DNA of 64,000 nt, from the NCBI GenBank assembly GCA_963771885.1, contig CAVYVF010000023.1, positions 32,001 through 96,000 on the forward strand, in the 5' to 3' direction. The position numbers and the translations under genes were made by a program. Of the stretch, positions 54,882-57,502 are shown piece by piece; positions within the stretch are counted from its first letter, which is position 1; each line of letters starts with the position of its first letter. Below the pieces are notes generated by a model. That model had not been told where the DNA came from. It saw only the letters and a list, made by a program, of their open reading frames with translations, and ran no database searches. This DNA comes from Candidatus Bathyarchaeota archaeon (GTDB lineage: Archaea > Thermoproteota > Bathyarchaeia > TCS64).

Positions 54882-56198
54882 TTAGGATAGGTCCTTGAAG
54901 GCCTTGATCTCCATCCCCTGCGGGATGCGTATGCCCTCGGCGACCCTGTCGCCGACGACCACCTTGACGCCCTTTGACGCTGCTGCGTCGATGAGGCGCC
55001 CCGTCACGATCCCGTCGAATACGACCGCCTTGACGTTCTCGGCGGCTTTGAGCTTCTCGACGAGCTCGGCGACAGGGAACCGCGGCGACTCTGCGTCGTC
55101 GGTTCCTATGAGGGTCGCTTCGAGTGTGCCCCTGAAGCCCTCAACGAGGCCCGCGTATTGCTTCGCAAGGCTGGGTGGGGGCGGGGGTGCTGCGACCTCG
55201 GGTGGTCTCTGACGCTGCGGGCGCGGTCCCCTCCGCGGGGGTGGTCCGCGCTCCATACGCTCTGGTGCACGCTCGGGAATACGTTCGGGTACACGCTCTG
55301 GCACACGTTCGGGCACCGCCTCGGGCTGGCGCTCCTCGACCTCGGGCTGCGCCTCGACCCCGCTCTGGAGTGCTGCCCAGGCCTCCTCGAAGGTGACCTT
55401 GGCTTCCAACGCTGCCTTTATTTGGTATGGGTCGAGCTCCTCAACCTCAGAGCCTCTGGGGGCACGTGCAACGTACCTAGGTCTTGCGACCTGCGCGAGC
55501 TCCCTGAGTATGAGGTCGCCTCCGCGGTCACCGTCGAGGAAGGCTGTGATCTCCTTCTTCCTGGCGAGCTCGCGGATTGTCTTGGGTACCTTTGCACCCT
55601 CGACGGCGATGGATCCACTGATTCCCGCCCTAAGGAGGTTGATGACATCTGCCCTGCCCTCGACGAGGATTATGTCGTTGCGGGTGCTGATGTCGGGTGT
55701 GGCGGTGAGTCTCTCGCGCCCGTAGTGTACAGGCTCGATCTTCTTACTCTCCAGCCCAACCTGCTCAAGCATGACCTCGATGTCGTGGTGCTCCTTGACG
55801 TGCCAGTCGCGCATGAGCTCCTTAGCGCGCTCCTGTATGCGCTTGAGCTTGTCTGCGCGCATGTCCTTGATCGCCTCGACGGCGATCTTGGACTCACACG
55901 GGCCGACCCTGTCGACGGTCTCCATAGCCGCCGCGATTATGGCGGTCTCAGGCCTGTCTAGGCTAGAAGGTACCACGAGTGTGCCTGTGGTCTTGTCGTT
56001 CGCGGACTTGAGGTCGATGTCGATTCTGCCGATCTTGCCTGTGCGCTGTAGCTCGCGTAGCTCAAAGTCCTTGGGGAAGAGCCCCTCGGTCTGGCCGAAG
56101 ATCGCCCCGATCACGTCGTGACGCTCGACGACTCCCTCGATTATGAAGCGTGCATGTATCGTATACTTGACGCCTGTGTAGCTGTCCTTATCTCCCAT
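54882..56198 (-). CDS. dnaG: Archaeal DnaG (primase-like, exosome-associated)
   Basis: DVIGAIFGQTEGL, ETVDRVGPC, VEGRADV, DGDRGG, FDGIVTGRLID. Confidence 0.95.
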   Translation of the reverse strand: MGDKDSYTGVKYTIHARFIIEGVVERHDVIGAIFGQTEGLFPKDFELRELQRTGKIGRIDIDLKSANDKTTGTLVVPSSLDRPETAIIAAAMETVDRVGPCESKIAVEAIKDMRADKLKRIQERAKELMRDWHVKEHHDIEVMLEQVGLESKKIEPVHYGRERLTATPDISTRNDIILVEGRADVINLLRAGISGSIAVEGAKVPKTIRELARKKEITAFLDGDRGGDLILRELAQVARPRYVARAPRGSEVEELDPYQIKAALEAKVTFEEAWAALQSGVEAQPEVEERQPEAVPERVPERVPERIPERAPERMERGPPPRRGPRPQRQRPPEVAAPPPPPSLAKQYAGLVEGFRGTLEATLIGTDDAESPRFPVAELVEKLKAAENVKAVVFDGIVTGRLIDAAASKGVKVVVGDRVAEGIRIPQGMEIKAFKDLS

Positions 56199-56398
56199 TG
56201 CTATATGCAACTCTGTTCGTTGTTGTCCTGATTCACACTAGCCGCGGCGCGGTCCCCTCCTATCTCCCTCTGGGGTTTCGCCCGGGTACTAAAACCCGTC
56301 CTGCTATGCTTCCATCCGGTGACTTGCGGGTACCAAGGGCGCTGTCGCGTCCTTTTCTACCCGCGGTGAGTGGGAATCACGCCTTCTCGGCGCGCTAC
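56199..56398 (-). ncRNA. Candidate structured leader RNA upstream of dnaG
   Basis: About 200-nt non-coding stretch after a TTTTTATT box (56423-56416), with several hairpins and a 7-bp long-range complementarity. Confidence 0.5.
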
Positions 56399-56500
56399 TG
56401 AGTCTTTCACCTAGGAATAAAAACCTTGTCGATCAAGCCTCCAGCCCACCGAACAAGGTTTTAAGAGGGTTTCACGGACCCTTATCTGAGGTACGTCCTC

Positions 56501-57502
56501 ATGGTTAAAGTCGCGATAAATGGATTCGGTAGGACGGGCCGCCTCGCTCTGCGGGCGGCGCTTGAGAGGGGCTCCAAGCTCGAGTTCGTCGCGGTTAATC
56601 GCGGCGACGCGAAGCTCCTGGGGCACCTGCTAAAGTACGACAGTGTTCACGGTAGGGCACCCTTCCCCGTCGAGGTGGAGGGGGACACGATAATTGCCGC
56701 CGGGAAACGCATCAAGGTGCTCAACGAATCGGATGCCGAGAAACTCCCGTGGAGGGACCTCGGGGTTTGGCTCGTCATCGACTCCTCCGATAAGTTCAGA
56801 GACAGGGACGGCGCTGGCAAGCATCTGAAAGCGGGGGCAAGCAAAGTTCTCGTCGGCGCACCGGGGAAGAAGCTTGATGCAACCATCGTCCTCGGTTGCA
56901 ACGATGGCATCTACGAACCGGCGAAGCACCATCTGGTGAGTAACGCGAGCTGCACTACGAACTGCGTAGCTCCAGTAGTCAAGGTGCTCAACGACCGCTT
57001 CGGGCTTGAATCCGCGATGGTCTCGACAATCCACGCCTACACTGGGAGCCAGATGCTCCTAGACAGGGCGGACAAAGACCTGCGCAGGGCACGCGCCGCA
57101 GCGATGAGTATAATCCCCACGACGACGGGGATGACGAGCGCTATAGGCGAAGTGTTACCTGAACTAAAGGGGAAAGTCGACGGGACCGCCTTCCGCGTCC
57201 CGACGCCCGACGTTAGCCTCATCGACGTCTCCGCAGTCCTCAAGGCAAAGCCTAATGCAGATGAGATAAACGCCGCCTTCAAGGAGGCCGCTGCGGGGAA
57301 GATGAAGGGCATACTCGGCTTCGACACGGAGCCCCTCGTCTCAGTCGACTATGTGCACAGCCCCTACAGCGCAGTTGTGGACGGCTCATCGACGGTGAGT
57401 AACGGCACGATGGTCAAGGTCGTGGCGTGGTACGATAACGAGTTCGGGTATAGCTGCAGGACGATTGAGTTGGCCGAGAAGATGGCCAGCTATGCAAAGT
57501 AG
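56501..57502 (+). CDS. gap: Type I (bacterial-type) glyceraldehyde-3-phosphate dehydrogenase
   Basis: INGFGRTGR, KYDSVHG, NASCTTNC, FRVPT, WYDNEFGYS. Confidence 0.9.
   Translation: MVKVAINGFGRTGRLALRAALERGSKLEFVAVNRGDAKLLGHLLKYDSVHGRAPFPVEVEGDTIIAAGKRIKVLNESDAEKLPWRDLGVWLVIDSSDKFRDRDGAGKHLKAGASKVLVGAPGKKLDATIVLGCNDGIYEPAKHHLVSNASCTTNCVAPVVKVLNDRFGLESAMVSTIHAYTGSQMLLDRADKDLRRARAAAMSIIPTTTGMTSAIGEVLPELKGKVDGTAFRVPTPDVSLIDVSAVLKAKPNADEINAAFKEAAAGKMKGILGFDTEPLVSVDYVHSPYSAVVDGSSTVSNGTMVKVVAWYDNEFGYSCRTIELAEKMASYAK

Follow-up and report, generated by a model that had tools for sequence, protein, structure and literature searches.

At this locus, the minus strand of the window (by which we mean the whole stretch of 64,000 nucleotides that was analysed) carries a gene for archaeal DnaG, an exosome-associated RNA-binding protein, preceded by a structured leader. 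The start codon of dnaG, as read from the letters, is the ATG at 56198, and a T run follows the gene. On the plus strand, a type I GAPDH gene diverges from dnaG and has a TATA-like box of its own (56459-56467) and a short leader. The features of the locus are as follows.

54882..56198, minus strand: dnaG, archaeal DnaG (NCBIfam NF003108, 443 bits, cut-off 300)
56199..56231, minus strand: A-rich single-stranded spacer with the weak Shine-Dalgarno sequence GAGUUG (56213-56208), from the leader alignment
56232..56247, minus strand: P1 3' arm, ending in a Shine-Dalgarno-like GUGA; pairing conserved in alignments
56254..56275, minus strand: P4 hairpin (CCCC/GGGG), from the fold; 85% of cells paired
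56283..56298, minus strand: P3 hairpin, shortened in the window's lineage; 90.5% of cells paired, with a U-A/C-G exchange
56319..56332, minus strand: middle element, CCYGC followed by an AA-UCAC-like linker; alternative partner of the inner 5' arm
56335..56354, minus strand: P2, a variable hairpin, from the fold; 24% sequence identity between genus groups
56361..56376, minus strand: P1 5' arm of the long-range helix; 78% identity between genus groups
56378..56394, minus strand: P0, a 5' hairpin (GCGCC/GGCGU), from the fold; most homologs have a hairpin of changing sequence here
56416..56434, minus strand: dnaG promoter, BRE-like box and TATA (GATCGACAAGG TTTTTATT); TTTTTA box in the same position in 71/71 leaders
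56501..57502, plus strand: type I GAPDH gene (TIGR01534, over cut-off), outside the leader element

A KY motif close to the N-terminus of DnaG was unchanged in 5/5 aligned proteins. The protein also possesses a long repetitive linker rich in Pro, Arg and Glu (PERV/PERI repeats) ahead of its C-terminal domain (55150-55350 in the window). The exosome core genes (two RNase PH genes, Rrp41/Rrp42) and Csl4 are present in the genome, the latter having been missed by the Pfam Csl4 model, as it was in one exosome-bearing control. In most genomes of the window's order, dnaG has a bacterial-type (type I) GAPDH gene as its divergent neighbour; in L019, the dnaG leader is retained though other sequence replaces the GAPDH gene.

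Structure of the dnaG leader

From archaeal promoter spacing, we infer that dnaG transcription starts near 56398, downstream of the TATA box TTTTTATT at 56423-56416. From this point, the RNA comprises P0, followed by P1, a 16-bp long-range helix (56376-56361 with 56247-56232) with a 2x2 internal loop, which closes a domain made up of P2, a linker, P3 and P4. The UCA within the P1 5' arm (56369-56367), at the internal loop, was invariant in 65/65 aligned leaders and in 6/6 short variants, and its C-A faces a dinucleotide that varies freely. In the long form of the leader, P1 ends 24-37 nt 5' of the start codon. The spacer from P1 to the start has a mean A fraction of 0.46, compared with 0.29 in whole leaders, and that of the window ranks at the 94th percentile for A content in a comparison with crudely called genes. 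The Shine-Dalgarno sequence was called with the anti-Shine-Dalgarno sequence of this genome's own 16S rRNA.

The leader of the window folded better than its shuffles (z -2.9, with 1/200 shuffles equally good), and the homologous leaders did so with a median z of -3.7, 62/65 being below -2. The first-pass annotation, made from the sequence alone, had proposed a structured leader in front of dnaG, and with a fold better than 199/200 shuffles and conservation in 71 genomes, this leader is real. The letters and coordinates that it quoted were also correct (TTTTTATT at 56423-56416, ATG at 56198, GCGGGUA at 56364-56358 and UACCCGC at 56332-56326). Amongst the hairpins that it listed, GCGCC/GGCGU corresponds to P0, which is conserved but weak or absent in L030, and CGGGU/ACCCG stands as a shortened form of the conserved P3, whereas CUUG/CAAG and GGG-CGAAA-CCC were unconserved, the CCCC pairing instead with a later GGGG as P4. 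The 7-bp complementarity GCGGGUA/UACCCGC, put forward as a pseudoknot or an alternative fold, is a real alternative pairing; it is a conserved, nested competitor of P1 and not a pseudoknot. P1 itself, the main feature of the leader, had gone unlisted.

Conservation of the fold

P1 was recovered unaided by RNAalifold. In a MAFFT alignment of 35 leaders, its positions were paired in 87% of cells, compared with 33-47% with slid partners; in an alignment of 60 fitted to the model, with a bias towards the structure, outer P1 was 89% and inner P1 96% paired. One inner pair was kept in 65/65 leaders (A-U 44, G-C 15, G-U 6), and this best case amounts to approximately three coincident changes on a tree built from dnaG coding DNA. 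P1 exhibits few independent changes on both sides of a pair, because most other pairs are invariant or vary by wobble, with some compensatory changes. Between genus groups, the P1 arms were 76-78% identical, compared with 24% for the P2 interior. Taken together with the 89-96% pairing, these values indicate that P1 is conserved beyond the needs of pairing, and thus resembles a recognition site. The covariance model gave sense matches of up to 130 bits, versus at most 24 bits for antisense matches.

The possibility that a conserved small ORF explains the region, raised in the first-pass annotation, was not borne out, as none was found in 65 leaders; a leader peptide or uORF attenuator was rejected on the same ground. 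The lengths of the P1 domain are spread over all three frames (14, 26 and 25 of 65), and 29/65 leaders have no AUG from P1 to the start codon. Nor did the alignment from P1 to the start codon contain a U-run terminator.

Distribution and linkage to dnaG

Within a sample of 79 genomes from the window's Bathyarchaeia order, 71 possess a leader of 150-230 nt between the conserved TTTTTA box and the dnaG start; the box was placed 153-230 nt ahead of the start codon. The other eight consist of five without a dnaG match, one with a partial gene, one with dnaG 139 nt from the contig end and a single leaderless genome (L033, family f3), in which dnaG lies 38 nt behind another gene. The dnaG start codons of the 71 leader-bearing genomes include GTG (25), TTG (3) and ACG (3). 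Sixty-five leaders are of the long form; the six shorter ones, all from family f4 (L023, L025-L028, L039), measure 153-161 nt from the TATA box. In the f4 form, P2-P4 are replaced and P1/UCA is kept, and in 4/4 predicted folds P1 or an extension of it pairs into the Shine-Dalgarno region. Common to all forms is therefore a P1 with UCA near the ribosome-binding site. The Shine-Dalgarno sequence of these f4 leaders lies next to P1 or is paired with it, and a pairing that involves P0 would compete.

To search more widely, covariance model 1 was built from 35 leaders with genus g8 left out. It recovered all 28 held-out g8 leaders (20-64 bits), found a single copy of the element in the window's genome, and had no match in the out-of-order loci tested with it or in 59 further loci, including four Methanocaldococcaceae and seven other Thermoproteota. 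Of 150 genomes of the class, 37 were matched, all from this order except for two weak hits in one genome; in 150 genomes of the phylum, the model matched the window's genome and gave two hits at E ~0.006, one of them on a contig that differs from that genome's dnaG contig. Weak model hits away from dnaG (G028, G291) were taken as chance because they lie inside long reading frames. Covariance model 2, built from 60 leaders, matched 30 of the 150 class genomes, every one in the window's order, and when run without filters it found 6/6 f4 leaders, weakly (11-16 bits) and at the correct place and strand, and 0/48 other loci. The exact pattern of the two P1 arms was present in 20 stretches in GTDB genomes and 41 in metagenomes, with 0 matches in viral contigs; of these 61 matches, 60 sit 25-57 nt 5' of a DnaG match, the flank of the remaining one being only 34 nt long.

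From these model and pattern searches, it follows that the element is tied to dnaG, with none found beyond one order among the searched genomes. Phyla beyond Thermoproteota were sampled by the exact pattern and four loci only; they are barely covered, since the alignment-based locus search returned mostly the same order and just 12 outside loci. A similar pattern upstream of dnaG in other archaea, which the first-pass annotation mentioned, fails as a pan-archaeal signature because these searches turned up no copy of the element in other orders; the wording GTAGCGCGCC...GCAAGT occurs, among the loci read, only in the closest relatives (L040, L194, L227).

A second copy of the leader (G004:C31:4741-4904, L166) precedes a dnaG fragment located on that contig next to an N run, and is probably an assembly artefact. 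L170 (Patescibacteria group) and L307 (Krumholzibacteriaceae) carry bacterial titles, are probably mislabelled, and encode an archaeal DnaG at 67-68% identity; L170 bears the leader too.

RNA evidence

Four metatranscriptome runs from four studies were chosen among 23 listed. In two of these runs (two studies), one contig each joins the leader to dnaG (56360-56017 and 56362-56137); in the other two, the contigs cover coding sequence and extend no more than 4 nt into the leader. No RNA contig covers 56377-56862. The contigs, which are of depth 3-6 and come from libraries that may hold DNA, show presence, and neither ends nor levels. Both bridging contigs stop at the inner end of the P1 5' arm, approximately 35 nt short of the inferred start, which is a weak hint of processing within the helix. 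A discrete abundant RNA, suggested by many runs with about one tenth of the stretch, was dropped as a candidate: of three such runs, one bridged leader and gene and two contained coding sequence.

Comparison with known RNA families

A scan against Rfam 15 gave no match in the leader at E values up to 10, and two weak matches in dnaG on the opposite strand. The RNase P and SRP RNAs of the genome were both detected over cut-off at other positions, in agreement with the earlier view that the leader is neither of them. Bulge-helix-bulge introns and box C/D and H/ACA RNAs have in common with the leader a long closing helix with an internal loop, whereas their register and C box are lacking here. 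A bulge-helix-bulge intron, requiring a 4-bp helix and two 3-nt bulges, was rejected: its central pairs are formed in 45, 9, 61 and 59 of 62 leaders, the genus g8 bulge is 4 nt long and the RNA contigs contain no splice joints. A guide RNA was likewise rejected, with a C-box-like word in 3/65 leaders, CUGA in 22/65 and unconserved K-turn boxes. Mimicry of 16S rRNA helix 45 comes down to approximately 5 bp in this genome, with the top two pairs differing, and was not used as support. At the top of its helix 45 stem, this genome's 16S rRNA (G000:C23, near 482800) has C-G pairs; in many archaea these are G-C pairs. The dnaG leader is thus an uncatalogued structured leader, restricted to one order.

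To our knowledge, few cis-regulatory RNAs have been described in archaea. We found no paper on an archaeal dnaG leader or an ACG dnaG start, nor on an exosome subunit controlled by its own leader; supplements of motif catalogues (e.g., PMC5737381, PMC8040213) may bear on novelty. The main text of PMC3124441 mentions neither dnaG nor primase, and PMC5499594 has dnaG/primase in a reference only.

Feedback control of dnaG as the preferred reading

In one order of the Bathyarchaeia, a group of uncultured sediment archaea, the leader probably controls the amount of DnaG. The proposal of a cis-acting leader, made in the first-pass annotation, is upheld by the linkage to dnaG, the single copy, the promoter, the lack of a conserved ORF and the bridging contigs; its suggestion of DnaG/exosome autoregulation is the most likely function, reached by analogy. 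To the full reading, in which the leader would let DnaG or the exosome, as presumed ligand, hold dnaG under feedback control in the manner of pnp and rne, we give slightly less than an even chance. Surplus DnaG, alone or on the Csl4-exosome, would recognise P1 together with the neighbouring A-rich spacer; once bound, it would block 30S loading or commit the dnaG mRNA to decay. When DnaG is engaged on other RNA substrates, the dnaG mRNA would be translated.

Feedback is most likely because DnaG binds A-rich RNA and works with the exosome, and because PNPase controls itself via a 5'-UTR helix. Passages of PMC4227792 describe S. solfataricus DnaG as binding RNA with a preference for poly(rA) via K6/Y7, as enabling rRNA tailing and as needed for the tailing of structured RNA, and its work with the archaeal exosome is covered in parts of PMC4227792 and PMC7667871. 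The latter, in part, also describes E. coli PNPase as structurally resembling the exosome core, and autoregulation of PNPase via its 5'-UTR helix appears in a portion of PMC8836086. Further support for feedback comes from the strict dnaG linkage, the single copy and the presence of Rrp41/Rrp42 and Csl4 in the genome, from the f4 variant, which keeps P1/UCA and is predicted to pair P1 or its extension into the Shine-Dalgarno region, and from the weak dnaG starts (GTG, TTG and ACG, with ACG in 29/30 members of family f11, see below). Weighing against feedback, the long-form P1 does not itself cover the Shine-Dalgarno sequence (24-37 nt away), the leader, found in one order only and lacking in its family f3 (L033), has a much narrower distribution than DnaG and its KY motif, DnaG is reported to prefer A-rich single strands and not a UCA loop, the spacer reaches only the 94th percentile for A, and two-sided changes in P1 are few (approximately three at the best pair).

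The E. coli rne 5'-UTR (Rfam RF00040) is a multi-hairpin leader of an RNA-decay gene; the dnaG leader is likewise multi-hairpin and sits on a decay gene, yet has no Rfam match (E up to 10). With the E. coli pnp leader it shares a long 5'-UTR helix on a gene of the 3'-5' phosphorolytic decay machinery (PMC8836086, in part). However, dnaG encodes an RNA-binding subunit and not the catalytic core, no sequence relation is expected, RNase III, on which the pnp loop depends, has no identified counterpart here, and feedback in dnaG is presumed. Ribosomal-protein leaders of bacteria and archaea are lineage-restricted, structured and bound by the encoded protein (PMC7247131), whereas dnaG is non-ribosomal and the helix 45 mimicry extends over approximately 5 bp only. 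A location 5' of a decay gene (given the inferred start site) and a conserved secondary structure are found here as in pnp and rne. By analogy with bacterial RNA-decay genes, the dnaG leader most likely works as their autoregulatory leaders do, and it belongs to no catalogued family. It offers a defined natural RNA for testing DnaG recognition and bacteria-like feedback on archaeal RNA decay.

Alternative readings

The point at which both bridging contigs stop could reflect processing of the pnp type, in which endonucleolytic cleavage of the 5' arm at its UCA loop would leave a 5' fragment of approximately 35 nt paired with the 3' arm; the DnaG-exosome would later tail and remove this fragment and thereby expose the mRNA to decay. 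Contigs of two studies ending at 56360 and 56362, approximately 35 nt short of the inferred start, would fit, as would the need for DnaG in the tailing of structured RNA (passages of PMC4227792). We nevertheless consider such processing quite unlikely: contigs of depth 3-6 cannot show ends, 5' ends are often lost, the leaders do not fit the bulge-helix-bulge register that the splicing endonuclease would require (second pair formed in 9/62), and no other nuclease can be named. Similarly improbable is a two-state switch driven by another signal (a metabolite, temperature or another protein), whereby the inner 5' arm would either pair with the 3' arm, leaving the site open, or with the middle CCYGC, freeing the UCAC-rich arm for the Shine-Dalgarno sequence. 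Folding predictions are compatible with it: the alternative fold lies a median of 2.4 kcal/mol above P1 (40/65 within 3) and uses the middle element in 58/65; the mean predicted accessibility of the Shine-Dalgarno sequence falls from 0.57 to 0.46-0.38 in that fold; and the predicted gap is below that of shuffled interiors in 51/65 leaders (median 3.8 vs 6.2, among kin that are not independent). However, the alternative helices are 69-75% paired, compared with 93% for inner P1 in the same alignment, no Rfam riboswitch matched, and there is no conserved aptamer core, since the interior is variable (24% identical) and replaced in f4, where the middle element is absent.

Both arms of P1 are conserved and the invariant UCA stands beside variable partners, which are left unexplained if P0 and P1 simply shield the 5' end or reduce translation to a constant degree, free of feedback. 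The stable fold suits such a constitutive role, and a weak Shine-Dalgarno sequence and frequent non-AUG starts would also cut output without a ligand; we assign it a low probability. The first-pass annotation had offered, as its other suggestion, a co-transcribed ncRNA partner of DnaG, which proved less likely given the lack of a U-run terminator and contigs that run into the gene. An RNA cut out of the dnaG transcript, and serving as a trans-acting RNA or DnaG partner, could account for the closed multi-branched domain of approximately 145 nt and its own promoter; it was never met away from dnaG (one copy per genome, 60/61 pattern matches at dnaG), contigs join leader and gene in 2/4 runs while those of the other two lie in coding sequence and reach no more than 4 nt into the leader, and C-box-like words occur in 3/65 only, leaving it very improbable.

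A different dnaG upstream region in family f11

Family f11, from another Bathyarchaeia order, was studied in the best-scoring 30 of its 61 genomes (L229-L258). Within these 30, ACG stands at the aligned dnaG start in 29 and ATG in the remaining one, and in 18/30 no ATG, GTG or TTG lies between the in-frame upstream stop and the KY motif. Most members have a different, irregular hairpin approximately 30-40 nt before a strong GGAGG site. This hairpin, located approximately 40-90 nt upstream of dnaG, exhibits paired exchanges (CGUGA/UCACG vs CAUGA/UCAUG), follows a conserved AT-rich block that resembles a promoter, and matched neither leader model. The conserved ACG start points in the same direction as the leader, and would make gene callers misplace the dnaG start in many Bathyarchaeia. 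A wider proposal, that archaea control DnaG by RNA-based feedback with unrelated leaders evolved repeatedly (P1/UCA, and the f11 hairpin-plus-ACG), P1/UCA being cut at its loop as in pnp and then losing the 5' fragment in a DnaG-dependent manner, appears to us unlikely.

An apparent ACG dnaG start behind a well-spaced GGAGG/GAGGTG was also seen in L017, L021, L106, L216, L217 and L061, scattered over other families, and L043 has CTG at this position.
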